A stretch of 64,000 nucleotides of DNA from Candidatus Rifleibacteriota bacterium. Lineage in GTDB: Bacteria; Vulcanimicrobiota; Xenobia; Xenobiales; Xenobiaceae. Position 1 is the first letter of the stretch. Each line of letters begins with the position of its first letter. Made by a program: the position numbers and the translations under genes. This document shows, piece after piece, positions 39,230 to 64,000 of the stretch. The notes under the pieces were generated by a model that did no database searches, was not told the DNA's origin, and worked only from the letters and a program-made list of their open reading frames with translations. The stretch covers positions 6,866-70,865 of the forward strand of contig CAAGRW010000134.1 in assembly GCA_900772775.1 (NCBI GenBank), written 5' to 3'.

Positions 39230-39273
39230 ATTGAATATTATTGTCAGCTGTTGTTGACAAGTTGTAGATCTGT

Positions 39274-39316: not shown

Positions 39317-39365
39317 GGCTTAAAAACGATTGCCAATCGCCACTATTTACTGATTTAGCTAGCGC

Positions 39366-40676: not shown

Positions 40677-40764
40677 ATATTTATTTCTCTCTAAATGCAA
40701 AAAAACAGCCTCAAGGAAAAATTCCACGAGGCTGCTGTTCTAAAATCCAGAAATAAGAAGCAGA

Positions 40765-41193: not shown

Positions 41194-41566
41194 TTCGTGT
41201 TTCACCTCCTTGATTAAGAACTCAACCGCAACGGCTATGCAGCCAACTGCGGCGGGGCGATCTCTGGTCTGAGACCTAAGATTATGCTGGCAAGTTCGCC
41301 TAAAATCTTTCTTACCCTGCCCGAACCCAGGAATATTTTCGCGTCTGCACATCTGAAAATCCGGGGCAGGCCAAAATCTTTCAAAAGGTTGGGAGTTCTC
41401 ACAGTCCCACCTTATGCGCCGACCTAAAAATAATTCCTTCCTGAGCCTATCTTTTTTTTATAATTTTTAGCAAGTTGAGGTTAAAAAATGCGGATTTTGT
41501 GGCCATATTGAAAAAAAAACTTATTTTTGCTAGTTTGAAGCTGAAGTTTTTTTTCAGGTGATCTTT

Positions 41567-42571: not shown

Positions 42572-42629
42572 ATCGGCTTTTGGGGGTTGACGCCAAGTTG
42601 AGTGAGGCTTGGCGCCAACTTTAGTTATA

Positions 42630-43922: not shown

Positions 43923-44101
43923 TTTGTTTCTCTCCTAAAACGGCGCTTGTGTCCGCCCAGCGCATTTTGCTAAAACAATAGGCTTTCACCTTCTCAAAAA
44001 GGCCACAAAATGCGCTTTTTAGGGCAGAAAAATATTCCGCTTCGGCGCAAAATCAGGCAAAGCCGCTTTGTCGGCAGCTCAAAGATAAAGTAGCCGAAGC
44101 T

Positions 44102-46234: not shown

Positions 46235-46383
46235 AATTTGTCTTTGTCTATTTGGGGGAAGTTAAAAAGAACAACAGCCCCCTCAGCTTAAGCGAAGGAG
46301 GCTGAATTTAATTTAAAGCGAGCTTAATTTTGACCAATTAAGCATACGCTTTTATCAATTATCATTTAGACATAGAGTACAAT

Positions 46384-47094
46384 CTAAAATGGTTTATTGC
46401 CTTCGCATTCATAAATATCGCCGGCAGCCATTACTTGCACTTTTTTGCCTGTCTCTTCTTCAACTAAGCGCTTAAATTCTTGCGGATCGGCTTTGACGAC
46501 CGGGAAAGTATTAAAGTGCATAGGTATCACTTCTTTGGGCTTAAGCATTTTGACCGCTTCTACGGCTTCTTCTATATCCATAGTGAAAGTACCGCCGATA
46601 GGTAAAAGGGCCAAATCTAAATCGTAGCGCTTGCCAATAAGTTCCATGTCGCCGAAAAGTCCGGTGTCACCGGAATGATAAATAGTTACGCCGCCTATAT
46701 TAAGCACGATACCTACGGAAGCGCCGGCGTATTTGCCTTCGAAAGAAGAACTATGCGTAGCTGGAACTAAGCGCATCCAGCCCCAGGAAAAATGTAATTT
46801 GCCACCCAGAGCGCAAGGGAAAGTTTTTACGCCTTTGGCTGCTAAAAGATTGGCCAATTCAAAAGGAGCTACTACAGTTGCACCGTGTAATTTTGCCAAA
46901 GATTCGGCGTCGCCGCTATGATCGCCGTGGCCGTGAGTCAGCAAAATGTGAGAAAAGACCAACCCTTTGGGTAAGCTTTGGCCTTGCATATGAGGGTTGC
47001 CTGTAATAAAAGGATCGATAATAACGGCTTGCTTATCTTCTGTTTCTAAAGCAAAAGCGGAATGGCCGAAGTAATGGACGCGAATTTTGGACAC
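46384..47094 (-). CDS. MBL-fold metal-dependent hydrolase (UPF0173-like)
   Basis: HILLTHGHGDHSGD motif. 236 aa. Confidence 0.8.
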   Translation of the reverse strand: MSKIRVHYFGHSAFALETEDKQAVIIDPFITGNPHMQGQSLPKGLVFSHILLTHGHGDHSGDAESLAKLHGATVVAPFELANLLAAKGVKTFPCALGGKLHFSWGWMRLVPATHSSSFEGKYAGASVGIVLNIGGVTIYHSGDTGLFGDMELIGKRYDLDLALLPIGGTFTMDIEEAVEAVKMLKPKEVIPMHFNTFPVVKADPQEFKRLVEEETGKKVQVMAAGDIYECEGNKPF

Positions 47095-47154
47095 GATTTT
47101 CCCTCCTTGACTACTTATCTAAAAGTATTAAACAGCGAGTCTATTGCAAAATAG

Positions 47155-47562
47155 CTAACCGAGGTGGGTCAGTTTAAGGAAATTTTCCAGGCGCTTTTGA
47201 GAGCAGCTCTTTAAGTAGTTGTCGAGTTGACGTTTTTCTTTGGCTTTGCGCTCTAAAAGAAGCCTAAACTCGCGATAGGGGGCCGGGCTAGACAGGGCGT
47301 CGGTAAGCCTGGAGGCCAAAGCTTTGTCAGCTACAATTTTAATAAATCCTTGTAACTCGGCATAACGCTCAGGGCCGGTCTTTTTGGGGATTTGTACAAA
47401 ACGCTTGGCGTCGGCAGCCATATCGCGTTTGAATCTTTCAATGCCTTGCGGATCTTGCAAACTGACTTTGCGTACAGTTTGTAATTTTATATCGGCAAAC
47501 CACTGTACGCCGGGATCGCTTTCATTTAAAGCCTCGATGAGTTTGGCATGATCTATGGCCAT
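47155..47562 (-). CDS. Hypothetical cytoplasmic protein
   Basis: 135-aa ORF in an operon-like position. No recognisable motif. Confidence 0.5.
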   Translation of the reverse strand: MAIDHAKLIEALNESDPGVQWFADIKLQTVRKVSLQDPQGIERFKRDMAADAKRFVQIPKKTGPERYAELQGFIKIVADKALASRLTDALSSPAPYREFRLLLERKAKEKRQLDNYLKSCSQKRLENFLKLTHLG

Positions 47563-47656
47563 TATTGCTTAGCCCTCCTTTGTTGCTGCACTGCCGATCT
47601 TGATATTCGGCGTCTTTGACTATTCCAATTGCTTAAGCTTGGCCCCTTCTCCCTTT

Positions 47657-48181
47657 CTATTTAGCTAGACGGCGCAACAAAGCGGAAGCGGAAGCGGCCA
47701 TGCCCTCACCTTGGCCACAAAATCCCATCTTTTCTGTGGTAGTAGCTTTTACACTGACGGCTGCGTCGGCTACACCCAAGGCGGTGGCAATATTGTGAGC
47801 CATAGTGGCAAAATAAGGAGAGATTTTGGGCTTTTGAGCGATTAAAATTGCGTCAATATTGACAATTTCGTAACCTTCGCGCTTAACCAAATCGGCTACG
47901 GCGGCGGCCAATTTTAAAGAATCGGCTCCTTTCCACTTAGGATCCGTGTCGGGGAAATGGACGCCAATATCAGCCAGTTTGGCTGCACCTAAAAGGGCGT
48001 CCATAACGGCATGTACCAAAACATCGGCGTCAGAATGGCCCAAAAGACCAAGCTCGTAAGGGATATTAACACCGCCAACTATTAAAGGGCGTCCTTCGAC
48101 AAGCCTGTGCACATCAAAGCCTAAACCGGTGCGGAATTGAGTCTGTTCTCTGATAAGTTCGATTATGTCTTGTCTATCCAT
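47657..48181 (-). CDS. ispF: 2-C-methyl-D-erythritol 2,4-cyclodiphosphate synthase
   Basis: [70 protein letters not shown]... is collinear with IspF. Start at the ATG at 48181 with an AGGAAAGG RBS. Confidence 0.9.
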
Positions 48182-48237
48182 AGAGGAGAGCCTTTCCTGA
48201 AAAACAACCGCCATCTAAACGGTATCTATTTTTGGCG

Positions 48238-48280
48238 AAAAAAAAGAGACGTAGAGTCAAAAAATTCGACGCTTCGTCTC
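48238..48280 (-). terminator. Rho-independent terminator (minus strand) after the 48339..48881 gene
   Basis: AGAGACG...CGTCTCT stem followed on the minus strand by 7 T plus T-rich sequence. Confidence 0.6.
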
Positions 48281-48338
48281 TCTTAGCCTTAATATATCTT
48301 CCTGTTGAGGAAAACAAACTAAAAAAACTTTATAAAAA

Positions 48339-48881
48339 TTAAGCGATGCGCACACCGTCTGTGTTGTAAATACCTTCGCTGATAGTAGAGGGACCATTAA
48401 GGAACATTTCTACTCCGGCCACTTGTTCAGTTTGAGCATCGTCGACAGCTGCCGTAGAGCTTACGGAAGAGGAATGCAAATCGGAAGGTTGCTGTATATC
48501 ATCTATCAGAGCGATAGTACCTAAGCTGGAAACAGCTAATTCTTTAACTTGGTTCTGCGTATTGACAGAAGCTGAAGAAGCATCGGCAATTAAGAAACCG
48601 TCAAATTCACTGCTGGTTAAGCCGTGCTTGGCGGAAGCTGTAGCCGAAGTAAAACTATCAACACTTACAGAGGGCTTAGAATCTGTTTGCTCGGAGGCGA
48701 GAGTAACGGACTCCAGCGAATCGGTATAGGTGAGATCCGAACCGATATTTACTTGATCAAGCTGCTGCTCGGGTTCGACATTGACGGAGGGGCGCTCGCG
48801 CTGAGCGGAAGCTGCTTGACCGTAGCTTAAAGCGCCCGCAGAACGGACGGTGTGCATTCCAGCCAAATTGATCTCGTTCAT
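48339..48881 (-). CDS. Ser/Thr/Asp-rich hypothetical protein
   Basis: GGAGGG RBS 8 nt before the ATG at 48881 (MNEINLAGMHT...). Low-complexity S/T-rich body. Confidence 0.5.
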   Translation of the reverse strand: MNEINLAGMHTVRSAGALSYGQAASAQRERPSVNVEPEQQLDQVNIGSDLTYTDSLESVTLASEQTDSKPSVSVDSFTSATASAKHGLTSSEFDGFLIADASSASVNTQNQVKELAVSSLGTIALIDDIQQPSDLHSSSVSSTAAVDDAQTEQVAGVEMFLNGPSTISEGIYNTDGVRIA

Positions 48882-49345
48882 ATAAATAACCCTCCAAAGG
48901 CTGAGCCCCATTTCTCAGGGTGCAGCCACAAAGACGCAGTCTCGCTGCTTACTTAATCCTTACTCGGAAATATATCTGAAAGTACCCGACAGCCAAACCA
49001 AAAGAGCTGCCAGGCCTATCAAAACTTCAGCCATGCCGAAAGATAACAAACTCAAAAAAGCTTTAAAACAGTAGTTAAAAACTTCAAATGAGAGCTTTTC
49101 GGGCATAGCCGAAAGTAAAATTCTGTTCTTTTGGTTCGCAAGGATATATTAGAAACAGGAGCTCTTAAAGTCAACGAACATAATGGGCCGTTTTGTTAAA
49201 ATCTGGTAGGAAAGGCTGTAAAGGTTTTGCCGCTCAAAAAATAGAAAATCGGCCTCGCGTTTGGTTGTGCAGCCCAGAATAGTTCTTAAACTTTTTTTTC
49301 GGCTGAAAGCAGCCAATTCTTTCGTATTCGGAGAAGGCTAAAATT

Positions 49346-49660
49346 ATGGAGATTACCACTAAGATCGTCCCTCAACCCGAAGTCGGAGGCAATGAAGTTA
49401 CTCTGGCTCTAAACGGGCGCTTCGGCAACAATTCCGCTTCCGAAGTAGAGAGTGCTGTTCAGGAAATTATCGGCTCGTGCCGCAGATTGGTTTTTGATTT
49501 TGCGGGTGTGGATTATATTTCCAGTGCCGGTTTGCGCGTTTTACTTATGGCCAAGAAAAAATTGGGCTCGGGGGTTGAAGTTAGCGTAATTAACGCCAAT
49601 GATGTTGTCAAAGAAATTTTCGATATTTCCGGCTTTTCCAAAATATTGCAAGTTCAATAA
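49346..49660 (+). CDS. STAS-domain anti-sigma-factor antagonist (SpoIIAA/RsbV-like)
   Basis: 104 aa. ...DFAGVDYISSAGLRVLL... carries the phosphorylatable Ser in its canonical position. Confidence 0.8.
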   Translation: MEITTKIVPQPEVGGNEVTLALNGRFGNNSASEVESAVQEIIGSCRRLVFDFAGVDYISSAGLRVLLMAKKKLGSGVEVSVINANDVVKEIFDISGFSKILQVQ

Positions 49661-49690
49661 ATAAGTACCTAAGCTCCTAAACTGAACAAT

Positions 49691-52012
49691 ATGCGCACCG
49701 CTATTCGCAAAAAGCTCTTAATCGTAGTTTCCTTGGCTGCTTTGATTGTCTCTTGGCTGGCTTTGGATTTGGTAGATCGCAACTGTCGCTTGCACGTGAG
49801 CAAGCTATTTAATGAAGCGGGCAAAGATACAGCCCGCGCTTTAGCTACTAGCGATAAACGCGCCTATGATATGCGTTCGAGCATGATGCATACGGTGCTG
49901 ACTTCTTTGGAAACTGTCACTGAAGTAGTCAATTCTTTTCCCGGCATAGAAAAGAATCACGCTGCTTTGGACGGCTTGCGCAGCAGTTTAGGTATCAGTC
50001 GTATCGATATTATCGATGCGGCTCAATGGAAAATTATAGTTAGCTCCGATAAGCAATTAGATGGAGCCCCTGTACAAGTTGACAGGCCCGCCCCTTTGCA
50101 AGATAGCAATCCCGATTTTAGCGCTTTTGTCAGCAGTATGGGCAGTTACCATCCGGTCGATTATGTTACCGATAGACACAATCGCGACTTGTTGCTTTTC
50201 TATAGCGAACTTAAGCGCAAAGGGCGAGTCTTGCGTTTGGGCTTCAATGCCGTCAGTTTTAAAAATACCTACAATGTGGCCGAACACGAGTTGGTAACAG
50301 GCAGCTTGCCGCTGGGCGAGCATGGCGGCGTCGATGTCGTTTCCCAAAATGGTGTGATCGTCAATTGCGTAAATAAAGAATTTATCGGCACGCCCTTTGC
50401 CGAAGTCTACCCAGGGCTTGATTTCAGCCATTTCAAGGCCGGCCAATTGATAAAAGCCAACCGTCGCGGCACGGTGAGCTATTGCACTTTCTACACTACG
50501 CAATACGGCTACATTATGGTGCCCTTTATGCCTGCGGCGGAAGTTTATGCCACGCGAACGACCATTTTGGAAGTTATGCTTACCGGCTTTTTGATTATTT
50601 TGGCCGCTATCTTTTTTAGCACTTCCCGCATTGTCAAAAAGGTTATTCTGGATGGTTTAGAGCGTATCAATGCTTCCTTAGCCAAAATTGAAGCTGGCGA
50701 TTTGGAAGAAAAAGTAAACGAAACGAGTTATCCTGAGTTTTGTGTGCTAAGCCAAGGTATCAATTCCACAGTAGATGCTTTGAAGCAACTTATGGAAAGC
50801 CAGTCGGCCTACGACGCCGAGCAAATGAATTTGGCGCGCACTATTCAGCTCTCTTGTTTGCCCAAGTTTTTCCCCACTTATCCCGAGCTTAAACAGCTTG
50901 ATCTTTGTGCTCGTACTTCACCAGCTCAAGAAGTAGGCGGAGATTTTTACGATTATTTCCGCATTAAAGACAATTTGTATTGCGTCATTATTGCCGATGT
51001 TTCCGAACATGGCATTCCGGCCGCTCTAATGATGATGACAGCCAAAACTGCTTTGCATGATGCTATTTTATCTGGCGATACGCTCGAACACTGTATGGAG
51101 AGTGTCAACTTCTCACTGTGTGAAAATAACAGCACTTGCATGTTCGTGACCGCTTTTGCCGCTACCGTCAATACCGAAACTGGCGAATTTCGCTTTGTCA
51201 ATGCTGGCCACTGTCGCCCTCTGTTGCGCCGTCGCGACGGCATTTGGCATTCGGTAAAGATTGGCTCCGGCATGGTGCTTGGCGGTATGGACAATTTGAG
51301 CTATTCGGCCGAGAGTTGGTTCCTGGAAGAAGGCGATCGTGTTTTCTTATATACAGATGGCGTTACCGAAGCTATTAACGAAAAAGGCGAGATGTTCGGT
51401 TTGGGTGGCTTAGAGGTAGTATTAAATCGCCCTGCTTGCGACAATTACGATCCCGCTTCTCTAATAAATTTAGTGCACGACGAATTGGACAAGTTTGCTC
51501 AAAATTCCACTTTGGAAGATGATGTGACTATGGTGGCCTTGGAATATTATGGCCGCCGCCCTCGGGCTCGTTTCCTTCAGGTGCCGGCTTTAAGTGAAAA
51601 GTTGGACGATGTACTCAACTTTATAGACAATTTGTTGGACGAAACAGAACTTGATTTAGAAACTCTCAAACAAGTAAAAAGCTCTATGGCTACTGCAGTT
51701 GACGATATTTTTACCAATATCGTGAATTATGCCGGCCAGGGACGTCAGGAAACGGTCACTGTCACTGTGCGAGCCGAAATTCAAGCCTATCCTTACCAAT
51801 TGGTCGTGCACTTTATAGATAATGGCCATCCTTACGATCCTACGGCTGTTTCCGCTCCCAATGTAGATTTAGGTTTCCAAGAGCGTTGCTGCGGCGGTTT
51901 GGGCATATTCTTGGTGAAAAAGCTGACCGATCAAATGACTTATCGCTATACGGAAGGTTGCAACATCCTTCGTTTAGCTAAAAAATTAGAAAAAGCGGAA
52001 GAAAAAAACTAG
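49691..52012 (+). CDS. Membrane sensor: TM / extracytoplasmic domain / TM, then HAMP, a PP2C (SpoIIE/RsbU-type) phosphatase, and a C-terminal GHKL (RsbW/SpoIIAB-like) serine-kinase domain
   Basis: HAMP: LERINASLAKIEAGDLEEKVNETSYPEFCVLSQGINSTVDALKQL. PP2C: QEVGGDFYDYF...VIIADVSEHGIPAALMM...FLYTDGVTEA. HATPase_c: ...VRAEIQAYPYQLVVHFIDNGHPYDP...CCGGLGIFLVKKLTDQMTY... Confidence 0.75.
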   Translation: MRTAIRKKLLIVVSLAALIVSWLALDLVDRNCRLHVSKLFNEAGKDTARALATSDKRAYDMRSSMMHTVLTSLETVTEVVNSFPGIEKNHAALDGLRSSLGISRIDIIDAAQWKIIVSSDKQLDGAPVQVDRPAPLQDSNPDFSAFVSSMGSYHPVDYVTDRHNRDLLLFYSELKRKGRVLRLGFNAVSFKNTYNVAEHELVTGSLPLGEHGGVDVVSQNGVIVNCVNKEFIGTPFAEVYPGLDFSHFKAGQLIKANRRGTVSYCTFYTTQYGYIMVPFMPAAEVYATRTTILEVMLTGFLIILAAIFFSTSRIVKKVILDGLERINASLAKIEAGDLEEKVNETSYPEFCVLSQGINSTVDALKQLMESQSAYDAEQMNLARTIQLSCLPKFFPTYPELKQLDLCARTSPAQEVGGDFYDYFRIKDNLYCVIIADVSEHGIPAALMMMTAKTALHDAILSGDTLEHCMESVNFSLCENNSTCMFVTAFAATVNTETGEFRFVNAGHCRPLLRRRDGIWHSVKIGSGMVLGGMDNLSYSAESWFLEEGDRVFLYTDGVTEAINEKGEMFGLGGLEVVLNRPACDNYDPASLINLVHDELDKFAQNSTLEDDVTMVALEYYGRRPRARFLQVPALSEKLDDVLNFIDNLLDETELDLETLKQVKSSMATAVDDIFTNIVNYAGQGRQETVTVTVRAEIQAYPYQLVVHFIDNGHPYDPTAVSAPNVDLGFQERCCGGLGIFLVKKLTDQMTYRYTEGCNILRLAKKLEKAEEKN

Positions 52013-52030
52013 CCGCACTTTGTCAAAAAT

Positions 52031-53323
52031 ATGGCTTCAGAAGATAATTATAACGAAAACAATGTCTCTCCCTTGACGGCGGCTTTGCTTACTTTGCTTA
52101 TTGGAGGCTTAGTCTGGTTGGGAGCTTCATTTTTTGATAATCTCACCAATTATGGCAGTCAGCCCCAGCCTGATCCTGTCAATTTGATGGCTTCGGGCAA
52201 TACTGAAGAAAATTTCTATAGTCCTGGACGGGCCAAGAGACGAGCCAATTTTTTCTTGCGCCGTCAAGGCGACGAAGCAGAAATGTCCTCTGCAGAAAAA
52301 GAACTTTTGGAAGAAGAAGATCGCACTAAAGAGCGCGATAAAGAAGATAGAGAAGAAGCTAGGCAAGGGCAAAATAGCAGCTCCGGTAATGACGACTTAG
52401 CTCAATCTCTCCAAGCTGTGCAATCTTCTGGAGCCGGTTGGGGAGAAGGTGGAGGGACTACTTCCGCTATTAGTCCTGTTTCTCCCGACGGTTTGAAACT
52501 TTCCGGCATTATGTTGGGTAGCGGCTCTGGCATTGCCGTTATCGAATATAACGGCACTTCCTACACAAAATCGGAAGGGCAAAAGATTGGCCGTTACACT
52601 GTGTCCAAAATTCTTTCTGACCGGGTAGTTGTAGAAGATGGAGTCAACAATTTTACTTTGGGGCTTAGCTCTTCCGGAAGTTCCGATTTAGCTTCTTCGG
52701 CAGGCGCAAGCCTTTCTTCAAACGGCCATCCTGTTTTGCCCGATCCCGGACAAGTGCCGCCACCTTCAGCACCGGTAGTAAAAGCCAAAACTGCTTTCAA
52801 AAATGAAGCTTCCTTAGCGCCTTCAGCTCTTTCAGAATACGAAGAAGAAAATGTTGAAACTGCCTCCGGAAATGCGTCTTCAGTGCCTGTGCCCAGCAAA
52901 ATTGATGTTTACGATTTAGCTCAAGAGCGCCGCGCCGAAGAAGAAAAAAAAGCTGACAGTTTGTATGCGCCTAAGGGAGCGGCCAAGGCTAAAGTAAAAT
53001 TGCCTAAAGCTAACCCTACGCCTGTGCGTCCTACTCGCGAAGAAATTGAAAAATATTTGCAGCGCGGCGCGGCCATCATTTCTGAAATTAAAGTGCAACC
53101 CGATGCCAGCGGTTTAGGCGTCAAAGTTAAGTTTGTACAAGAAGATAACGTATTGCACCGTTTAGGCATAAAAGATGGCGACGTTATCACCAGAGTAAAT
53201 AATAAAACTATTTTAAATAGCGAAGAATTGTTTAATTCAGTGCTCAATATTAGCGAAATGCCTTTCGTCAATATTGAATACAAACGCCAAGGCCAAACTG
53301 ATACTTTAATTTACGATTTATAA
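52031..53323 (+). CDS. gspC: GspC-like T2SS inner-membrane protein (TM, HR/PilP-like domain, C-terminal PDZ-like domain)
   Basis: TM LTAALLTLLIGGLVWLGASFF. HR-like LKLSGIMLGSGSGIAVIEYNGTSYTKSEGQKIGRYTVSKILSDRVVVEDG. C-terminal GVKVKFVQEDNVLHRLGIKDGDVITRVNNKTILNSEELFNSVL (PDZ-like). Confidence 0.55.
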   Translation: MASEDNYNENNVSPLTAALLTLLIGGLVWLGASFFDNLTNYGSQPQPDPVNLMASGNTEENFYSPGRAKRRANFFLRRQGDEAEMSSAEKELLEEEDRTKERDKEDREEARQGQNSSSGNDDLAQSLQAVQSSGAGWGEGGGTTSAISPVSPDGLKLSGIMLGSGSGIAVIEYNGTSYTKSEGQKIGRYTVSKILSDRVVVEDGVNNFTLGLSSSGSSDLASSAGASLSSNGHPVLPDPGQVPPPSAPVVKAKTAFKNEASLAPSALSEYEEENVETASGNASSVPVPSKIDVYDLAQERRAEEEKKADSLYAPKGAAKAKVKLPKANPTPVRPTREEIEKYLQRGAAIISEIKVQPDASGLGVKVKFVQEDNVLHRLGIKDGDVITRVNNKTILNSEELFNSVLNISEMPFVNIEYKRQGQTDTLIYDL

Positions 53324-53432
53324 AACGGGCCGCGTCGCTAGCAGCTTTGGGCCGCTACTCATTTAGGCTCACTCAAAATGGACGGGCTTTTTAGCAGGAG
53401 CCGCCCCTTGAAAGACAAATTACCTACGCCCT

Positions 53433-54722
53433 ATGGGTACGTTTTATAAGACAGCTCTCAGCCTGGCCGTTACAGCCGGCATTGGTTTCTCTCTCTGCGC
53501 TCCTTGTTTGGCCGAGCCTTGCGTTTCGGCTGAAGGACGTCTTGTAGCCGCTTCTTACGGCGTGAAAAAATACGATCGCGCTTCCAAAGCTAAAAAGGCG
53601 CCTAATTCAGCCAAGAAAAATATTGCACAAGATCAGTCGGTGCAAGCTTTAAACGAGATGCGTTTAGTCTCGCGTTGGTTTGCTGCTGCTTACGATATTC
53701 CGGCTCGCGTGCCCGAAGAAATGTTTTTAGCTGGCTATACCTATAGCGACGCTATTGTGGCTCTTTCGCTGATGGATGCGGGCGCTTCCTTAAATGAAGT
53801 ATTGGAGCAAAGGCGCAACCATCGCTGGGATGAAGTAGCCGCTTCAGTTGGTATCGAGCCTTCTTCTTTACCTAAGCCGGTCATCAAAGTAATGAATACT
53901 CAAAATGGCAATAGACCTTTAGAGTATGTCCATTTTACTCCCGATGTTCGCTCCGGCTTAGCTAGTCGTTTGCATTTGCCTTCTTTTTCTCCCACTGTGC
54001 CGGATCCCGTAGCTGTCGAACGTTTCCGTCTGTCTAAGAGCGATATTGCCAATATCAGAAAAGCCTTAGAAAATGTCAACGACTTAGATGAAGCCACTTT
54101 GCGCTTGCCTGCCGGTCGCTCTTTAAAAGTGGGCGATTGGGTCATTGCCGGCGTTCTCTCTAAATATAAGCCTTTCCCTATAGATACTATTCTCTCAGTT
54201 CGCACTGGCGAAGTAGTAGAGTGGGGCGATGTGGCCGCTATGTTTAGCGTCGATCCCAGCATTTTTGTAGAAGGCCCCTTGGCTCCCATTTATGGCGCTT
54301 TAGTCGAAGGTGAAAATTATGCTACTTTGTCGAGCTTGCGTCGCTCTTCTTATCCAGATGCCCTTAACAATATCTATGCCTTAAACAATGTAGAAGGCGC
54401 CGAGTTGCAAGCTTTGGGCTGGCTCATGAGTCTCTACTACAAAGAAACCGACGAAGAGAGGGCTTTACTCAATTCTTACGGCCTTTCTTTTGCCGATCAG
54501 GCTTTGTCTTTAGCTGTAGCTCGTATGGCTTTTGCCGATGTTAACGAAATCGCCAACCGTATTCGTCATGGAGCCAATTGGCAATATTTAATCGACTACT
54601 ATAAGTTAGACATGACCGGCCAAGATGTAGTGATGGCTGCTGCCGTAAGTCGCGACCAAGCTCGTTTCCCCGAAACTCCTTCGACAGATTCTAAGTCTGT
54701 GCGCAGTAAGCGCTTCAATTAG
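53433..54722 (+). CDS. Secreted hypothetical protein inside the T2SS-like cluster
   Basis: Signal peptide ALSLAVTAGIGFSLCAPCLAEP. 429 aa with no recognisable family. Confidence 0.5.
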   Translation: MGTFYKTALSLAVTAGIGFSLCAPCLAEPCVSAEGRLVAASYGVKKYDRASKAKKAPNSAKKNIAQDQSVQALNEMRLVSRWFAAAYDIPARVPEEMFLAGYTYSDAIVALSLMDAGASLNEVLEQRRNHRWDEVAASVGIEPSSLPKPVIKVMNTQNGNRPLEYVHFTPDVRSGLASRLHLPSFSPTVPDPVAVERFRLSKSDIANIRKALENVNDLDEATLRLPAGRSLKVGDWVIAGVLSKYKPFPIDTILSVRTGEVVEWGDVAAMFSVDPSIFVEGPLAPIYGALVEGENYATLSSLRRSSYPDALNNIYALNNVEGAELQALGWLMSLYYKETDEERALLNSYGLSFADQALSLAVARMAFADVNEIANRIRHGANWQYLIDYYKLDMTGQDVVMAAAVSRDQARFPETPSTDSKSVRSKRFN

Positions 54723-54730
54723 GAAAGACC

Positions 54731-55144
54731 TTGAACAGGCTGCTAACTAGAAAAAATAGTGAAAGGGGAGGCAAGCTGGGCTTTTCGCTTTTGGAAGTGC
54801 TCATTTCGTTAGGCTTGGTCTCTATGGTCTTCGGCAGCTTAATTGGGGGCTTTTGCCAGCATGTGCAGCGTGTCGCTCGCCTGGGCCCCTTCTATCGCAA
54901 TCTGATCGTGGCTTCCGTAGGTTTGGAAAAAAGCATGGCCAAGAGAAATGACGGCGAGACCGATTCTATAGATGATATTGAATATAAAGTCACCGTCGGA
55001 GCCATGCCTTCCGATCCGCGTATCGACCAGATAGAAAGCAAAGTTAGCAGCAATCGTCCGGGACATAGCGCTGTAGTTAAGGCTTATCGCTTGCGTCAGG
55101 TCAGTTCTGCTTCATCTTCTTCGGGCACTTCTTCCGGCACCTAG
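54731..55144 (+). CDS. Minor pseudopilin (GspI/GspH-like) with a type IV prepilin leader
   Basis: ...GGKLG|FSLLEVLISLGLVSMVFG: Gly-Phe cleavage site, Glu+5, hydrophobic helix. TTG start with AGGAAAG RBS. Confidence 0.65.
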   Translation: MNRLLTRKNSERGGKLGFSLLEVLISLGLVSMVFGSLIGGFCQHVQRVARLGPFYRNLIVASVGLEKSMAKRNDGETDSIDDIEYKVTVGAMPSDPRIDQIESKVSSNRPGHSAVVKAYRLRQVSSASSSSGTSSGT

Positions 55145-55162
55145 TCAGAAATTTTTTTATTC

Positions 55163-55966
55163 ATGTTTAAAGCCAGCTTCAGTGCAAAAAATACAGCCTT
55201 GCTTTTAAGACGACATTCCGGCGGCTTCACTTTGCTTGAACTTATGCTGGTTATGGGGCTGGCCACTTTAGTTTATTCACTGATTTCCTACATGACCATT
55301 CAGATGAATAATACGGTGCGCCATTCGCAAGTAGCTTTCAAACGCCAAGAATTGATTATCGAAACGGCTGAGCGTTTGCGCTGGCAATTGCGTTGTCTTT
55401 ATGATCGCGTACCGGAAAGCTCTTCTTCTGAAGCTCCTGCCAGCCATACCAATCCTCCCACTTTGCTTAAATCGGCTCTCTATGGCAAAAGCCTAGGTGA
55501 AAAAGGGAAAGATGTACTCCTTTTCAAGACTACCTATTTCCCTTTGCGAGTTAAAAACAGCGGTACTGCTGAAGTGGGCTACAAAATTATGAGCGATTCT
55601 TCCGGAAGCTTCTCTCTTACCGAGCCGGTAAAAACAGATGACGATAAGTTGCGCTCTCTGGAAGCTGCCGATTTTATTAGCTCTAATCAAAACGCTGAAA
55701 GTAAAAACTACTTGGCTTACCGGCAGTACCCTTGGGCCGATCCTTTGGGCTTACACGATGTTGGCGACGATAGTCAGGTGCCTTGGGAAAAGTTAAGCTC
55801 AGAAATTATCGGTATGGAAATACGCTTTTCCGATGATTTAGAAATTTGGCAGCAAGATTGGACAGGCGAAGGGGTGCCCAAGTGGGTGGAAGTTACTTTT
55901 GAACTTAAACGCGGCGAGCCTTTAGTCTTCATTACCGGCCCTGTAGTAGCGGCCGATCGCTGGTAG
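55163..55966 (+). CDS. Minor pseudopilin (GspJ-like)
   Basis: ...RRHSGG|FTLLELMLVMGLATLVYSLISY prepilin signal. The start is either the ATG at 55163 or the in-frame TTG at 55199. Confidence 0.6.
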   Translation: MFKASFSAKNTALLLRRHSGGFTLLELMLVMGLATLVYSLISYMTIQMNNTVRHSQVAFKRQELIIETAERLRWQLRCLYDRVPESSSSEAPASHTNPPTLLKSALYGKSLGEKGKDVLLFKTTYFPLRVKNSGTAEVGYKIMSDSSGSFSLTEPVKTDDDKLRSLEAADFISSNQNAESKNYLAYRQYPWADPLGLHDVGDDSQVPWEKLSSEIIGMEIRFSDDLEIWQQDWTGEGVPKWVEVTFELKRGEPLVFITGPVVAADRW

Positions 55967-55978
55967 GGGGCAACGATT

Positions 55979-57118
55979 ATGGTTTTAATGGCAGTTTTGG
56001 GAGCTATTTTGGTCGCTTTAGTTATTGCTGCCAAAATGAGCGAAGTGGGCGTCGACGCCCAAAACCTAATAAACTACACTTCAGCTAGAGAAAACAATTA
56101 CCAGATCGCTCGTTCGGCTGCCGAAATGGGCTTCGAGCTTCTTAAAGCCGACAATGGCGATACCGACAGCTTAAACGATATGTGGGCTGCTGGTTCCGTC
56201 ACTATGGAGTGGGAAGGCAAAAACGTTATCATCAGTATCATTGACGAAGAGAGCAAGTTTCCTCTCAGCGCTATGCAAAAAGCTCCTGATAATTGCGAAT
56301 ATTTGGAAAAAGGCTTGGTGCGTCTTTTTGAAAATGGCGGTTTGGGCTGCGGCGAAGAAGCCAAAGATCGCTTTCTCGATTGGGTAGATCCCGATTCTCA
56401 AAGGCGCAACCAAGGCGGCGAAGTTAGCGATTATGATGAACTGACTATAAAAGATGCTCCGGTCGATTCTTTGCAAGAAATTTTGAATTTGCCCGGTTGG
56501 GATAAAGGCCCCTCGTATGCTTCGGCCCGAGCTCAAAACAGTTTGCAAAGCGTTATGGGATCTGTTTCCGCTGGTAGTTCAGCTACTTTAAGCCAGGCGG
56601 CCGCCCAATCTTCAACCGAGAGCCAAAATACGGCTGCAAGCAATACCTCTGCCAACAACGGCCAATTTAGCAAGTTCGGATCTGACAATTCAAGCCAAAC
56701 TACTGCCAATTCAGAAGATGAAGGCTACAAATTAGATGTACCTTCAGCCCAAACTCAAGGCGGCACTGCCACTACTCCCTGGGAAGAATGGGTCAGCGTC
56801 GATTCTAATGGCAAAATCAATATCAATACCGCTCCCAAAGAAGTGCTTCTGGCTTTGGATGAAAGTATGAGCCAAGTGTTGGTAGATGAAATCGACTCTA
56901 AGCGCCGCTCTGAAGCTTTCAAAAAAGTAGACGATTTGCACAACGTTACCGGCATGGACGCCGATTTGCTTTTCCGTATCCAGGATTATTTGTGCGTTAA
57001 AAGTTCTACTTTTAGTATCGATGTAACGGTTCTGTCCACTCCCGGACGCATAAAGTTGCACAGTGTAGTCAGCCGTGAAAGCGGCGCTATAAAAATTTTG
57101 CGCTGGGAAATACGCTAA
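55979..57118 (+). CDS. gspK: GspK-like pseudopilin
   Basis: Non-canonical N-terminal hydrophobic segment AVLGAILVALVIAAKMSE and a C-terminal helix-hairpin-helix KININTAPKEVLLAL characteristic of GspK. TAGGGGG RBS. Confidence 0.6.
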   Translation: MVLMAVLGAILVALVIAAKMSEVGVDAQNLINYTSARENNYQIARSAAEMGFELLKADNGDTDSLNDMWAAGSVTMEWEGKNVIISIIDEESKFPLSAMQKAPDNCEYLEKGLVRLFENGGLGCGEEAKDRFLDWVDPDSQRRNQGGEVSDYDELTIKDAPVDSLQEILNLPGWDKGPSYASARAQNSLQSVMGSVSAGSSATLSQAAAQSSTESQNTAASNTSANNGQFSKFGSDNSSQTTANSEDEGYKLDVPSAQTQGGTATTPWEEWVSVDSNGKININTAPKEVLLALDESMSQVLVDEIDSKRRSEAFKKVDDLHNVTGMDADLLFRIQDYLCVKSSTFSIDVTVLSTPGRIKLHSVVSRESGAIKILRWEIR

Positions 57119-57416
57119 AAATTTCTTGGCGCTGGATCTTTTTGCCATTAGGCAAAAAATAGGGCAGGAAGGGAAACAATCGGGGAGAACCAAGGCCATG
57201 TAGAATAAAGTCTGCACGCCATATTGTTTAACTTTCTTTATATAACCAACTTCAGGTTCTCTTCACGGAAGTACATTTTTTTTACTATGTGGAGGAACTT
57301 GTTATCTTACATGGAAAAACCGCTGGAAATAAGGCTGATGTTCTCGCAAAGCATCTCCTTGAAGTAAACCCTACAAACTTTCAAAGGTTTTTCTCGAAAG
57401 GGATTTGTTACTAAAC

Positions 57417-58922
57417 ATGACTAACAAGAACACGTTTCGTTTTGCTACTTTCGCTGCAGTAGCCAGCTTAGGTTTAGGCTTGATGATCTCCGGCTGCGGT
57501 GATGGCGGCTCCACTACTCCTAACCCCTTAAACGCCAAATTCGGCCAAGTCACTTTCAACTACAACGTATTGGCTCAGACCACTGCTAGAGCCGATATCG
57601 CTGAAAATATCGCCACTGTAAAATACGTTTTCTTCGGTGTAGAAAATGGCGCTCGCTTCATGGAAGAGCCCGTTGCTTACAATTTCACTCACGGTGAAAA
57701 AGATGCCGAGACCGATGTTACCGTTAAGAACGTCAATCTCGATGCTTCCGGCGTAATCGCTGCCTACTACGACAAAGATGGCAACCTCGTTGCTATGGGC
57801 GAAGATGTTATCGAATTCGATGCCGAAGGTAAAGAAGTTGTCGAGACTCCCGAAGTAACCGACTTCGCTAACGCTACCTACAGCATGACCGCTAGCCAGT
57901 ACGTTATCGCTCCTAAGGACGAAACCGTTATCGGTCTTACCGCCGTTGCCGGTGACAAGACTTACAACGTAACTCCTTTCGTAACCATCAGTGGTATCGA
58001 CGAAGCTATCTTGGCTTATGTCCAGGATACCAACCAAGGCGCTACCTACCAGGGCGCTGAGTACGGCACCATCGCCGCCAACACCATTAAGGCTACTGTA
58101 AACGGCACCGAGTATGCTATCGACAAGCCCATCTACGTAACCGACCAGACCCCCAACGCCATCAAGATTGTGGCCGACCAGGTTGACGGTAAAGACGTAA
58201 CCACCGTTGCCGCTACCGAAGAAGCCAACGAAGCCCTCACCGTAGTATTGGCCGGTGAAAAGAGCATTCTCGCTAACGAGAAAGCCGTAGAGCTCACTGC
58301 TGAAGGCAAAGACGCTCTCTACTATGCCGTAAACGAGCAGCCTATCGCCGTTATCGCTACCGGTTACACCAACGTAGAGGGTAAAGGCCCGCAGCCCGAA
58401 GGTATTGAGAGCGAAATCGAAGACCTCAGCAAGATCACCCTCGTTTCCGGCACCGAAGCTACCGCTAAGGCCGAAGGTTTGAACCTCATCGCCGCTGCCG
58501 AAGGTAACACCGTCGTCACCGCTACTTACAAAGTAGACGACGAAACCACCGTCGAGAGCACCAACAAGTTGGACGTCAAAGTTGTCGGCGCTGACGAGAA
58601 CCTCGCTTTCTCCAACACTGAGACCAAAGCTTTCATGACTGATGTCAAAGTAGACGCTGAAAAAGACCAGACCTTCACCATGGCTGTTGCCGGTAAAGCT
58701 ACTTTAGACGTAGACGCTACTTCTTACGTCAGCGCTCCTATCGAGTACACCGCTGAGGAGTATCCCGCCATCGTAGCCGTTACCGAAGAAGGTATCACTT
58801 ACGCTCAGACCGAGGGTAAGAACGAGTACACTCTCACCGTGGCCAAGACCGCTGCTCCTGAAGAAGCTGTCGAAATCACCGTTGATGCTACTTCCTTCGA
58901 CTCTATCGAAGTTACCAAGTAG
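57417..58922 (+). CDS. Surface lipoprotein, paralog 1 of a four-member tandem family
   Basis: Lipobox LMISGC, then conserved FNYNVLA, TVKYVFFG and AAYYDKDGNLVAMG motifs shared with the downstream paralogs. ATG at 57417; an in-frame TTG at 57405 is also possible. Confidence 0.7.
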   Translation: MTNKNTFRFATFAAVASLGLGLMISGCGDGGSTTPNPLNAKFGQVTFNYNVLAQTTARADIAENIATVKYVFFGVENGARFMEEPVAYNFTHGEKDAETDVTVKNVNLDASGVIAAYYDKDGNLVAMGEDVIEFDAEGKEVVETPEVTDFANATYSMTASQYVIAPKDETVIGLTAVAGDKTYNVTPFVTISGIDEAILAYVQDTNQGATYQGAEYGTIAANTIKATVNGTEYAIDKPIYVTDQTPNAIKIVADQVDGKDVTTVAATEEANEALTVVLAGEKSILANEKAVELTAEGKDALYYAVNEQPIAVIATGYTNVEGKGPQPEGIESEIEDLSKITLVSGTEATAKAEGLNLIAAAEGNTVVTATYKVDDETTVESTNKLDVKVVGADENLAFSNTETKAFMTDVKVDAEKDQTFTMAVAGKATLDVDATSYVSAPIEYTAEEYPAIVAVTEEGITYAQTEGKNEYTLTVAKTAAPEEAVEITVDATSFDSIEVTK

Positions 58923-58983
58923 TAATTTCTACTTACACTTCATCTAGGTTGAGTTTGTAGCTTAGCCTAGTTTGAACTGAGAA

Positions 58984-59022
58984 TAGCCTCCGGCTTCTAC
59001 TGAAGCTGGAGGCTATTTTTTT
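58984..59022 (+). terminator. Rho-independent terminator
   Basis: 14-bp stem TAGCCTCCGGCTTC/GAAGCTGGAGGCTA followed by TTTTTTT. Confidence 0.7.
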
Positions 59023-59168
59023 GCTTTATTGTGTGAAGTTTTTTTTATAAAAAAGTAAAAAATGCCGAAAAAAGGACGTTTCTCTTTTGCTGGTGAAAAA
59101 AGCTAGGAGCGTCCGCTGTGAAGCGGTTCTGGCTATTTTTTCTAACGAAAGGTTTTGTCTTTTTACAT

Positions 59169-60842
59169 ATGCTTAACAAAAACACGTTTTGTTTTACTGC
59201 TTTTGCAGCGGTCGCTAGCTTAGGTTTAGGCTTATTCGTTTCCGGTTGCGGCGACAGCGGCTCTACTAGCCCCAACCCTTTAACGCCGACAACTAAAACT
59301 TATAAGGCCGTTTTTAATTACAATGTGTTGGCTGCTTCAACCGCTAAGGCTACTGATATAAAATCCGAAATCGTTACTGTCAAATATGCTTTTTATGGCC
59401 AAATTGACGGCCAAAACTTTATAAACGGCCCCGAAACCGATCCTTCTTATATTCAAACTTTTACTCACGGCGCAGAAGCTGTAGAAAAAGAATTTACAGT
59501 CAATAATGTCGATCCGCAAGCTACTTCAGTAGTGGCAGCTTACTATGACGCTGAAGGCAACTTAGTGGCTGTTGGTCAAAACGATATTTCTTTTAACGAA
59601 GATAAGGTTGCTATCGTAGCTGAACCTGAATTAGACGAAGTCGCTGACGATAGCATAACTTTTACCGCTAGCAAATACGTTATACCTTTGCAAGATACTG
59701 TGCTAATGTCTCTTAAAGCTATAGCTGCCAATAAATAATACGATTTGAGCGCTTTTGCCGAAATTAGCGGTATAGACGAGGCGGTGCTCGAAAAGCAAGA
59801 GGGCAGCTTAGAGGGCCTTACTTACAAGGGCATAAAATATGGCACTATTGAAGGTGGTACTATTACTGCTACTATTGGCAACACTAAGACCGTTATCGCC
59901 GATCCTATTTATGTTACCGACCAAACCCCCTCTGCTATTAGGGTAAAGCCTGCTTCAGTTGAGGGCCATGATATTTTTGCCGATAGTGATTACAATGGCC
60001 AAAAGTATTATATGCAATACGTTGACGAGAAGTGTTTACTTAGCCATTACCCGTACATAAAGTACCACGCCAATTCTTCCAAGAAACAATACGATCCAAT
60101 CTACTATTACATTAACGATCAACCTTTTATCGTTTATGCCACCGCTTACACTTCCGAAGATCCTACCAAAGGGCCTACTCCCACTATTAAAGATGGACAA
60201 ATTGGTATCAATATTACCGACGATCCTAACGTTAAGCTTTTAGATGTAGAATTTTCCGATCCCGAGTATATGAAAGCGCTTGGTTTCAAAATTCAGGCTA
60301 GTATAGTCGATAAAACTAAAGTGCATGCTAGTGGCGTAAACTCTTATAACTATGGTGACGATTACCAAATAACTGCCCAATATGGACAAGGCGACCAAGC
60401 TATAAAGAGCGATCCTATAAGGTTAATCGTCGAAGCTGAAGGCGTGAATAATGAAGTTATTCAGTTTGCGGCTATAGAGGAAGGCCAAGAACCTACTTTC
60501 TTTGTTCCTTATACTATCGAGGCTAAGAAAACTAAGATCGACTTTAAGATGAAACTTATGGGCATTTCTAGTGTGCTTATTAGCTTTGATGGAGGAGAAT
60601 CGGTGCCTTTTTATACCGATCCTTTGGAAATTCCCACCGATGTAATTGCACCTGATCAGTATCCTGATGTTGTCAAGCAAACTGAGTTCTCCAACTTGAT
60701 TTATAAACAAGATGAACCTGGACTTAATGCCTACACCTTAAAAGCTGAAGGTGAGCTGGAAGCTAATAAAATAGTTAAGCTTTACGTTGAAGATGTGGAA
60801 AGCGCTCCGCAATACTCTTTCATATCTATTACCACTTATTAG
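59169..60842 (+). pseudogene. Lipoprotein paralog 2, interrupted by an in-frame TAA at 59736..59738 (the ORF track splits it into 59118..59738 and 59745..60842, same frame)
   Basis: ...LKAIAANK * YDLSAFAEISGIDEAVL... aligns residue for residue with paralog 1 ...TAVAGDKTYNVTPFVTISGIDEAIL... across the stop. The 5' UTR and signal peptide are also homologous to paralog 1. Confidence 0.6.
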
Positions 60843-60867
60843 AGTGATAGTTCGCTAAATTAACTAT

Positions 60868-60907
60868 AAGCGGTTGTACTTCTTGTAAGTACAGCCGCTT
60901 TTTTTAT
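60868..60907 (+). terminator. Rho-independent terminator
   Basis: AAGCGGTTGTACTT/AAGTACAGCCGCTT stem followed by TTTTTTTATT. Confidence 0.65.
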
Positions 60908-61117
60908 TGGAAGGCTTGGCAGGAGGGAGGGCGCCTTGTTTGAAAATGTATCGGTTATTATTTATAAATTGCCCCGGGGTGGCTTTTTTTTGCCAAGTCG
61001 GCGGCGCTTGTCTCTTGTAAGCTATTTTTCTGGCTGAAAGGCTGAGAAACGGTTCACGAATTTTTCGCGTCAAAAGCGCGGTTCAACTCTTTCTATCTCT
61101 GAGAGGAACAAATAAAT

Positions 61118-62731
61118 ATGGCTAAGTCCGCCTATAAGAATCTATACGGCTTTACTGCTTTTGCGGCTGCCGCCGGTTTGGCTTTGTGCTTAACTGCTTC
61201 CGGTTGCAGTGATGATACTTCCGATCCCAATCCTTTTGCGGCCAACCTCGGTACTGTCACCTATAACTATACTAAAGCCGTAGCTAAAGCTGCCGAGCTT
61301 CCTTCTACTGCTGTTAAAGCTACTTACACTTTTAGTGCCGGCGACGCTTTAGTCTATACTACCAGCGCTCCTATCGATACTATTACTGACGAAGAAGCCG
61401 CTGCTGGCGAATCGGTTGTCCGTACAGTTACTATCGAACAAGTACCTGCTAGTGCTGACAAAGTTTCCGTTATGTACTTTAATAGCGAGGGCACTCCCGT
61501 TGGTTTGGGCGTAGATAGCCTCGACTGGACTTCCACTACTACAGGTAAAGCCGCTGTTGTAGATCAGCCCGATGTCATAGACAGCACAACTATCGCTGCT
61601 CAAATTGTGGCCAAGCAAATTGTTCCCCAATTAGTAGCTTCCGCTCCTTGCGTAGACAAGGGCAACTACGTTTGGGTAAAGCCTGTTATGGCTTACACTA
61701 ATAGTTTAGGTCAGTCCGTCACCTTTGATCTTAGCGGTTTTGCTACCTATTCTTTGAATAAAAAATATGCCGATCAGCCCACTTATTTAGAAGAAGCCAA
61801 ATATGCCTATTATATGGGCAACAAGGCCGATTCTTTAGTAGCTGACGAAGACACTACCGAAGATGATACTACTGGCGAAGACACTGAAGCTACTGCTAAA
61901 GTAAGCGCTGCCGAAGCTACTCCCGGCTATTATAAAGCTGTTGAATATGGCCAGCAGGAAGTTAGCGTATCTCTGACCGGTTTGGAAGCTTTGGGCGAAT
62001 TGGCTCCTCTTACTGTCTATATTAGCGACGCCAAACTTGCTGGTGTAACTATCGATGGTGAAGATGATGTTTACGTTATCGCTCCCGATTACGATTTCGG
62101 TCAGGAATCTGTGACTGTCTCCGGCGTAAGCACTGCTGCTATTCCTTTTAATACTGCATCTTTCCAAGCTGTCGGCGAATATGTTGGCACCAACGGCCCT
62201 AGCTTCACTACCGATGCCAGCCAGTATGTCAACTGGAATATTGAACAGAGCGAAGGCGTTACCGCTACTCAAGACGCTTTGGGTCACTATGTAGTTACTT
62301 CCAAAGCTACTTCTTTGAAAGATATTGCTATAACCGCTCAGTCTAAAGGTACTTCCGACAAAGTCACTTTGCACTCTCTGCCCGCTAAAGCCGATATTAA
62401 AGTCAATATCGATAAAGAAATGACCTTGGATACCGTAGAAAATGGTACCGTTGAAGGTTTCTTCAAAGTTACGACTGCTGAAGGAGAAGTAGAAACTTCC
62501 AGCTTCAATGTTCCCAACTATGGTAAAGTCAAGATCAAAAATGTCGAGTCTGATAGAGCCGAGAGCAAACCTGAAGTAGCTAAAAATGAAAATGCTAACG
62601 GCATTTACATTAGTCTTGACAAAGAAGAGCCCGGAAACGAGGTTTCTTTCGACGTTATTTACAAAGATGGTAAGAAAATCAACAAGACAGTTTCCACTAC
62701 CGTAACTGTTGTTGACGTCGAAGATGTATAG
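61118..62731 (+). CDS. Surface lipoprotein, paralog 3
   Basis: GAGAGGA RBS. Lipobox LTASGC, with VTYNYTKAVA, ATYTFSAG and VMYFNSEGTPVGLG motifs homologous to paralogs 1 and 2. Confidence 0.7.
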   Translation: MAKSAYKNLYGFTAFAAAAGLALCLTASGCSDDTSDPNPFAANLGTVTYNYTKAVAKAAELPSTAVKATYTFSAGDALVYTTSAPIDTITDEEAAAGESVVRTVTIEQVPASADKVSVMYFNSEGTPVGLGVDSLDWTSTTTGKAAVVDQPDVIDSTTIAAQIVAKQIVPQLVASAPCVDKGNYVWVKPVMAYTNSLGQSVTFDLSGFATYSLNKKYADQPTYLEEAKYAYYMGNKADSLVADEDTTEDDTTGEDTEATAKVSAAEATPGYYKAVEYGQQEVSVSLTGLEALGELAPLTVYISDAKLAGVTIDGEDDVYVIAPDYDFGQESVTVSGVSTAAIPFNTASFQAVGEYVGTNGPSFTTDASQYVNWNIEQSEGVTATQDALGHYVVTSKATSLKDIAITAQSKGTSDKVTLHSLPAKADIKVNIDKEMTLDTVENGTVEGFFKVTTAEGEVETSSFNVPNYGKVKIKNVESDRAESKPEVAKNENANGIYISLDKEEPGNEVSFDVIYKDGKKINKTVSTTVTVVDVEDV

Positions 62732-62895
62732 TTTCTTGTAATTCTTACGATATAAAAGGTGGCTGTCTCAGCTCTAACAATCTGGGGCTGCCCCTTTTTT
62801 TTAGGCTAACATTATTTTGTTAAAGGCGGAAAAATATCTGCTTTAGCAAAATTTGAGGGGCTTTGATACTACATTTTCACCAGAAAGGAATATCT

Positions 62896-64000
62896 ATGCG
62901 CAAGTTTTTTCTTAACAAACGCTCTTGGAAAGTTTTAGTAGCTTTTCTTATGGTGTTGGGCTTTTGCACTGTCTTAAGCGCTTGCTCCGACGATGATGAG
63001 CTGGCTAATCCTTCTCGCGCTTCTATTTTGGTAACTCACGAAATTTCTTCCGGTAAAGTAGCGGCTTCGGCTCGTGCTTTAGGTTCCGATATTCACAGTG
63101 TGATTTACTATTGCTACAACAGCCAGGGCGTGCGTACTTTTGGACCGGCTCAGTTGGTAAAAGCTCACCAAGTGCTTTTGCAAGCTGTTCCGGTAGAATC
63201 TACCTCTATTGGTATGACCTACTACAATAGTGATGGTAAAGCTTTGGCTTACTACAGCCAGCCTGTCAGCTTAAAAGTAGGCCAAGTCTACGAAGTGACC
63301 AATCCCGAGTGGAAATACCTTGACGAAATCGACAATATGGTCGGCTTAGAAATTGCTCAAGACGAGATGCGTTTGCATACTGGCGACGAGGCTATTTTCT
63401 ACGCTTTGGCTTTATTTAAAGATGCTGAAAGTGGCAAAATCTATCCTCAGCTTTTCACCGGTATGTGTGATTGGAAGAGCAGCAATACTAAAGTTGCTTC
63501 TTTAACTAAACAAACCGATGACGGCGAGAGCACTTTAGGCAATGGTAAGTTCTATACTTTGGCTGCTGGCAGCGCCGACATTAGCGCTTCTTTCCAGAAA
63601 TATACTGATACCGTAACTTTAAATGTTACTGACGCTGATATTACTGAAGTTAAATTTGCGGAAACTGACATTACTTTGCCTTTAGGTTTGCCTTCTTACG
63701 AGTGTCCTTTGATGGCTACTTGGTCTGATGGCGAAACTACCGACGTAAGTTATCAGAGCAACTGGAGCTCTAGCAATATTGATCGCGTTTTGGCTAGCTA
63801 TGGCGCTATCTTCCCTAAAGCTTGCCACGAAGAAGAGGAACAGCCTACTACTATTACCGCTACTTGCACTTCCAATGGCAATAGTTATCAGGCTCAGTGC
63901 AAAGTAACTGTAGTTGAAGGCACTTTCAAAGGTTTAAGCGTCTCTCTCGACCCGGAAACTCTCTATGTTGGTGGATCTAGCTTCATTGATGTCTTTGCTA
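62896..64000 (+). CDS. Surface lipoprotein, paralog 4 (partial, runs off the window end)
   Basis: AAAGGAA RBS. Lipobox VLSACSDDD with YYCYNSQG and MTYYNSDGKALAYY motifs. No stop before 64000. Confidence 0.65.
   Translation, partial: MRKFFLNKRSWKVLVAFLMVLGFCTVLSACSDDDELANPSRASILVTHEISSGKVAASARALGSDIHSVIYYCYNSQGVRTFGPAQLVKAHQVLLQAVPVESTSIGMTYYNSDGKALAYYSQPVSLKVGQVYEVTNPEWKYLDEIDNMVGLEIAQDEMRLHTGDEAIFYALALFKDAESGKIYPQLFTGMCDWKSSNTKVASLTKQTDDGESTLGNGKFYTLAAGSADISASFQKYTDTVTLNVTDADITEVKFAETDITLPLGLPSYECPLMATWSDGETTDVSYQSNWSSSNIDRVLASYGAIFPKACHEEEEQPTTITATCTSNGNSYQAQCKVTVVEGTFKGLSVSLDPETLYVGGSSFIDVFA

Follow-up and report, generated by a model that had tools for sequence, protein, structure and literature searches.

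Lipoprotein genes and the LP2 reading frame

The window (the whole stretch of DNA analysed, 64,000 nucleotides) carries tandem lipoprotein genes directly downstream of a pseudopilin cluster resembling those of type II secretion systems (T2SS) and type IV pili. Three of them (LP1 to LP3) are 21–39% identical to each other, and a probable fourth (LP4) is seen in the gene tables of two contigs (L001, L021). The features that matter here are listed below with their window coordinates.

54731..55144: pseudopilin, GspI/ComGE-like
55163..55966: pseudopilin, GspJ-like, with an N-methylation motif
55979..57118: GspK
57417..58922, + strand: lipoprotein paralog 1 (LP1), 501 aa, 39% identical to LP2
58979..59020, + strand: intrinsic terminator of LP1 (hairpin)
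59169..59735, + strand: N-terminal part of LP2, with predicted signal peptide, lipobox V-S-G-C, disordered linker, the first Ig-like domain and the opening strands of the second
59736..59738, + strand: premature stop TAA; ancestor GAA (Glu) with G-to-T at 59736, from seven orthologues
59739..60842, + strand: remainder of LP2, same frame, intact; natural TAG at 60840-60842
59745..59747, + strand: TTG start of the 365-aa fragment, used by the ORF finder and the gene callers
60868..60900, + strand: intrinsic terminator of LP2 (14-bp stem and T run)
61118..62731, + strand: lipoprotein paralog 3 (LP3), 537 aa, 21% identical to LP2
62769-62790: strong intrinsic terminator of LP3
62896..64000, + strand: probable fourth paralog (LP4), running off the window; 480 aa on the full contig

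The premature TAA at 59736-59738 is read directly from the + strand of the window. It closes an ORF of 206 aa that starts with GTG (59118..59738), and an ORF of 365 aa (59745..60842) begins with TTG 6 nt past it. The two ORFs lie in a common frame (59745 − 59118 = 627 = 3 × 209), in which the stop is codon 207 counted from the GTG and codon 190 counted from a conserved ATG at 59169. Translated straight through, the segment has 574 codons and, over its full length, is 39% identical to paralog 1 (57405..58922 in this alignment), the TAA standing opposite a Thr (AGDKTYNV in paralog 1, AANK-stop-YDL in LP2). Full-length proteins in the database align with the read-through protein along 100% of its length and reach 94% identity (E = 0), so the two ORFs are no chance juxtaposition; judged from frame and alignment they are one gene, lipoprotein paralog 2 (LP2). 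Coordinates, frame arithmetic and the whole-length alignment bear out the sequence-only reading of this DNA, which had described LP2 as split by an in-frame TAA opposite the Thr of paralog 1. In annotation, the 206-aa and 365-aa ORFs should become one disrupted gene, with the intact 574/557-aa form as the reference for the family; beyond annotation the significance of the stop is small.

The gene callers place the start of LP2 at GTG 59118. The start conserved across species is ATG 59169 (MLNKNTF...), since two of the orthologous loci (L007 and L008) carry in-frame stops upstream of this ATG. The N-terminus has a signal peptide followed by a lipobox of the form [LVI][ASTVI][GAS]C, with the sequence MLNKNTFCFTAFAAVASLGLGLFVSGC. 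The codon of the lipobox cysteine is at 59247-59249, and this residue (Cys44) is invariant in 70 homologues. LP2 is a predicted substrate of signal peptidase II, that is, a lipoprotein.

Searches of LP2 against Pfam gave only a sub-threshold match to DUF7077, and searches against NCBIfam gave nothing above cutoff. AlphaFold2 modelling of P0001, the closest intact orthologue, from a 70-sequence alignment gave a confident structure (mean pLDDT 85.5, pTM 0.76) that is almost all beta. After a disordered stretch (residues 1-58) come beta-sandwich domains in series, the first spanning approximately residues 61-170. Residue 207 belongs to a predicted strand (206-209) past domain 1 and within domain 2. 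The best Foldseek matches in the PDB are Leptospira LigA, the S-layer protein SbsB, the Ig-like region of PrgB, FdeC and cadherins, with E values of 1e-6 to 4e-4 for the top entries 8gyr, 4aq1, 8beg and 4e9l (the listed matches span 1e-6 to 1e-3). Their TM-scores on the query are low (0.12-0.18), as expected for flexible chains of domains, so the resemblance of LP2 to Ig-like surface proteins holds at the level of the domain fold only. LP2 is predicted to be a lipid-anchored chain of Ig-like domains of ~557 aa. A string of predicted Ig-like beta-sandwiches is what LP2 shares with the Big-domain surface proteins (Leptospira LigA/LigB, the intimin/invasin-type FdeC of E. coli, Enterococcus PrgB, SbsB). 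LigA/LigB also carry an N-terminal lipoprotein signal, a second trait in common with LP2. LP2 differs from these families in that no Pfam or NCBIfam Big-domain model matches it, the fold alone being similar. The lineage possesses a set of tandem genes for surface lipoproteins of predicted Ig-like fold that belong to no Pfam or NCBIfam family, and this paralog family seems confined to Xenobia-type gut metagenome-assembled genomes (MAGs).

LP1 has its own terminator (58979..59020), so LP2 is a separate transcription unit. A terminator follows each of LP1 to LP3 and no polar effect of the premature stop on LP3 is therefore expected. Elsewhere in the window, an SLH-domain protein of 820 aa (11572..14034, − strand) adjoins a HicA/HicB toxin-antitoxin pair (~10.5-11.5 kb; gene tables of L030), a hint that the envelope of this lineage may be of the S-layer type.

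The natural end of LP2 (60840..60863) is polymorphic. In the window a TAG comes first, and codons for SDSSLN lead on to a TAA, while many orthologue alleles (e.g., P0005, 564 aa) have CAG (Gln) in place of the TAG and gain seven residues (QSDSFVN); other alleles terminate in ...TTYPND or ...TTYPNN. One homologue of 603 aa (P0041, from Logan) has an odd N-terminus and a C-terminus that crosses the terminator and intergenic region of the window for ~100 residues (…SGCTACKYSRFFFIGRLGRREG…). This extension probably reflects a frame that happens to be open, or an artefact of assembly or gene calling.

Orthologues and the ancestral codon

A collection of 5.8 billion proteins was searched with the read-through protein, the stop being written as X. 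Approximately 40 clusters of orthologues were retrieved, 76-94% identical to LP2, nearly all with 100% query coverage and mostly 557-577 aa long. The next-ranked matches are at the level of paralogs (30-45% identity), a few of them labelled 'Candidatus Bruticola sp.', a genus within Xenobia (phylum Vulcanimicrobiota/Eremiobacterota). A scan of GTDB species representatives found an LP2 orthologue in five species (Hadza gut MAGs, a MetaWRAP gut MAG and UBP9 UBA4705). No internal stop occurs in the orthologues of these five representatives and of two further contigs (L003-L009, the two contigs being L003 and L004), and LP2 is a single uninterrupted gene in all relatives compared. Values of dN/dS among the orthologues are 0.16-0.28 for the whole gene and 0.06-0.27 for its halves taken separately; with each half under 0.3, they show that intact LP2 is functional in the relatives. 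By these values (dN/dS ~0.2) both halves are under purifying selection there.

These data bear directly on the proposal that the locus is naturally two genes, one for a short lipoprotein and one for a separate cytoplasmic protein, as the callers would have it, who annotate two products (206 aa and 365 aa) on contigs with the TAA. Against it, the frame is one continuous ORF in every relative, from 76% to 99.9% identity, the gap between the ORFs is only 6 nt in the same frame with flanks identical to intact alleles, and residue 207 falls inside a predicted beta-strand of domain 2 where there is no domain boundary. As the relatives all have a single LP2 gene, the two-gene proposal is refuted and we give it practically no credence. 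Relatives with two natural genes had been named beforehand as the outcome that would speak against a disrupted gene; none is of this kind.

The codon at the position of the stop was read from a codon alignment of LP2 of the window with seven orthologous DNA sequences. The column has GAA in three orthologues and GAG in four, all coding for Glu, whereas the window has TAA. Across the 1,725 nt of LP2 this alignment shows a single base private to the window, the T at 59736, and the 30 nt on either side of the stop match the intact allele of L003 exactly. The orthologue column and the identical flanks define the event as GAA (Glu) to TAA through a G-to-T transversion at 59736. The one-base change that had been proposed to account for the TAA is thus confirmed, and the list of candidate codons given with it contains the true ancestor. 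Downstream of the stop (59739..60842) there are no further private substitutions, stops or frameshifts; outside 59736, LP2 of the window equals the intact alleles of L004 and L014. Since the gene is otherwise unchanged, the nonsense event must be very recent.

Intact alleles exist on haplotypes close to that of the window. A pattern scan of metagenome contigs gave one match, L004 (ERZ869991), with the allele GAA. Its LP2 is identical to that of the window except for G at 59736 and its flanks differ at 11 sites, so this strain is distinct from the one in the window. The exact repaired 574-aa protein (P0123) was then followed on 22 contigs that carry it, from Hadza and related gut metagenomes. 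The closest is scaffold_3 of SAMEA4765854 (L014 and L031), from another Hadza gut sample: it has one difference in 20,621 bp, at 59736, and zero in a further 21,278 bp, so that 59736 is the sole difference from the window's contig in the 41.9 kb compared. NODE_83 of yet another Hadza sample has four differences in ~62 kb. The ancestral GAA, the sole private base and the intact near-identical strains support the option, raised in the sequence-only reading, of a recent nonsense mutation in a redundant family. The word 'antigen' used there for this family goes further than the structure prediction, which shows an Ig-like multidomain lipoprotein only.

Over 9335..64000 (54.7 kb) only two SNPs are private to the window, 37858 and 59736. 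At 37858 seven other contigs read T and the window reads A, which turns TTT (Phe) into ATT (Ile) at codon 949 (Phe949Ile) of a gene (35014..38139, + strand) encoding a PPDK-like protein with a PPDK_N domain. Both private changes (T-to-A and G-to-T) are transversions and both alter a protein, a pattern that fits fresh mutations and also fits errors. An excess of nonsense changes was considered and rejected: stop-creating changes make up 4.4% of all possible substitutions in LP2, and to find one such change in two private SNPs is not significant (P ~0.09).

Nonsense allele, consensus error or functional stop

The truncated 206-aa product is found on four to five contigs only, mutually identical wherever they could be compared. 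Of four TAA carriers, ERZ27296300 k119_89083 matches the window at 100% identity, ERZ28619178 RAMP15-1_SAMN03418268 scaffold_97 is identical to it except for contig-end junk, and two are similar contigs. Within their overlap with the window, JGI contig Ga0134560_1000118 (IMG 3300030040) and a Logan contig from run SRR1930141 also show 100% identity. In a cluster look-up of the truncated form, whose sources include NCBI and Logan, the longest carrier is a contig of 119,517 bp, and the JGI/IMG copy lies on a contig of 65,975 bp. The names and the perfect identity indicate that the TAA-bearing assemblies are probably re-assemblies of one sample, RAMP15 presumably standing for the Rampelli 2015 Hadza study. 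A search by accession found no literature linking ERZ27296300, ERZ28619178/SAMN03418268, JGI 3300030040 and Logan SRR1930141. Since several differently named assemblies, made with different assemblers, all give T, an assembler artefact is unlikely; since they possibly stem from the same reads, an error at the read level could still be common to all of them.

A consensus error in this single dataset, or a minority variant promoted in one low-depth metagenome, is therefore the main rival to a nonsense allele: the real allele would be GAA and the gene intact. It would explain why the haplotype departs from contigs of other samples at this one base only, and it agrees with the probable origin of the TAA carriers in one sample and with a second private SNP that is likewise a protein-changing transversion. 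G-to-T is, moreover, the signature of oxidative damage in library preparation. However, damage artefacts sit at low allele fraction and not in the consensus sequence, and T is present in at least four assemblies produced by different pipelines (MEGAHIT-style k119, RAMP15-1 scaffold, IMG, NCBI/Logan), one of them with a 119-kb contig that suggests adequate depth. Nor is any other long gene disrupted in the 64-kb window, which argues that the assembly is not generally error-ridden. We consider such an error rather unlikely.

A different possibility is that the stop is functional, either as a reversible phase-variation site or by programmed read-through or re-initiation yielding two products. Tandem families of surface-type lipoproteins such as the one to which LP2 belongs often phase-vary, and an in-frame TTG lies 6 nt downstream of the stop. 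The sequence around 59736 (AATAAATAATAC) has no simple-sequence or tandem repeat and no homopolymer, its longest single-base run being 3, and what separates the intact from the stop allele is a G/T substitution, with no change in the number of repeats. LP2 therefore lacks what marks a slipped-strand contingency locus, a repeat at the switch site with repeat-number alleles. It also lacks the flanking inverted repeats and nearby recombinase of an invertible element: the inverted repeats around LP2 are limited to short (10-17 nt), imperfect, chance-level ones and the terminator hairpins, and the gene tables show no recombinase among the neighbouring genes. LP2 resembles the phase-variable contingency loci (Neisseria opa, Haemophilus lic) in being a surface-type member of a multigene family turned off by a small change. 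In those loci, however, the change is a frame-shifting one in repeat number with a high reversion rate, whereas in LP2 it is a substitution in non-repetitive sequence.

Recoding fares no better. A programmed read-through site is recognised by a conserved stop, and a reassigned codon by its disuse as a terminator. No orthologue has a stop at the position of codon 207, and TAA is the commonest stop of the window (23 of the 42 long ORFs), as TAA-T is the commonest, and thus preferred, termination context (11 of 42). Codon reassignment was rejected on this normal stop usage and on the 85% coding density of the window under the standard code. No tRNA gene, suppressor tRNAs included, was found in the window. 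The purine-rich ribosome-binding motif seen before several other genes of the window is absent from the sequence ahead of TTG 59745 (tatagctgccaataaataatacgat), and any product initiated there would be without a signal peptide. With no repeat, inversion or recoding feature at 59736, reversion could occur only through ordinary back-mutation, so the stop is not a switch. The reversible on/off inactivation that had been suggested from the letters alone is thus unsupported, and a functional stop of any of these kinds is very improbable.

Nature and probable fate of the LP2 allele

We favour, with a probability of roughly 0.78 on the comparative sequence data, a real and very recent GAA-to-TAA nonsense allele, i.e., a nascent pseudogene, in one strain or sample of an uncultured human-gut Xenobia. 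LP2 is one gene among four tandem paralogs (the fourth being probable) of this uncultured gut Xenobia (Vulcanimicrobiota/Eremiobacterota), and a single G-to-T change at 59736 in the sampled strain would have converted the Glu codon into TAA. Translation would then end after residue 206. Because residue 207 lies inside domain 2, after domain 1, one expects a short lipoprotein, held by its lipid anchor, that keeps domain 1 and part of domain 2. The remaining C-terminal two thirds would go unmade or, at best, be synthesised in the cytoplasm, lacking a signal peptide. The stop may be tolerated because three paralogs remain, or the allele may simply not yet have been purged.

This kind of phenomenon, a strain-private nonsense allele, is already known. 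LP2 is like the nascent pseudogenes and strain-private nonsense alleles of bacterial populations and MAGs in having a one-base nonsense change in an otherwise intact gene, orthologues that are intact and under purifying selection, and an allele limited to one strain or sample. Nothing essential sets it apart from them, its particulars being the four-copy tandem family and the uncultured gut Xenobia host.

The allele may not be neutral. Adaptive loss of an exposed Ig-like lipoprotein, for instance as escape from a receptor-using phage or from host antibody, caught soon after arising in a strain that circulates among Hadza individuals, could be invoked from the nonsense change being one of two private changes in ~55 kb and, over 41.9 kb, all that separates the window from its nearest intact strain; we regard it as quite unlikely. 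If the truncation were selected, it would mark the LP family as one on which phages or immune defences exert pressure, in a phylum without a cultured gut representative.

Recurrent disruption of the paralogs in other strains was considered and rejected. The apparent splits of LP1, LP3 and LP4 in three loci (L013, L016, L017) are runs of N, and a shortened pseudopilin in L012 is likewise a scaffold gap of N and no true disruption. When 15 loci of the same species were scanned against a reference, LP1 to LP4 showed no further real stop or frameshift; the flags raised were dismissed as a scaffold gap (LP1 of L013) and contig-end junk (LP3 of L002). The radical-SAM gene of L014 is called as two pieces (334 + 30 aa), and the scan flagged nothing there. 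The MERR22-1 scaffolds (L012, L013, L016, L017) contain gaps of 10 or 100 N within genes. Note that such gaps lead gene callers to report apparently split genes, which makes them a trap for pseudogene counts.

A side result of modest interest is the recurrence of a near-identical strain in several Hadza gut metagenomes from different studies. It was followed over 9335..64000 in scaffold_3 of SAMEA4765854 (L014/L031), in NODE_83 of Hadza A_8_1525 (L010/L023/L030) and in two further contigs (L033, L035). Contigs of this strain show 0-4 differences in 40-60 kb, and in the closest cases 0-1 differences in more than 40 kb, which points to strain sharing within the Hadza population.
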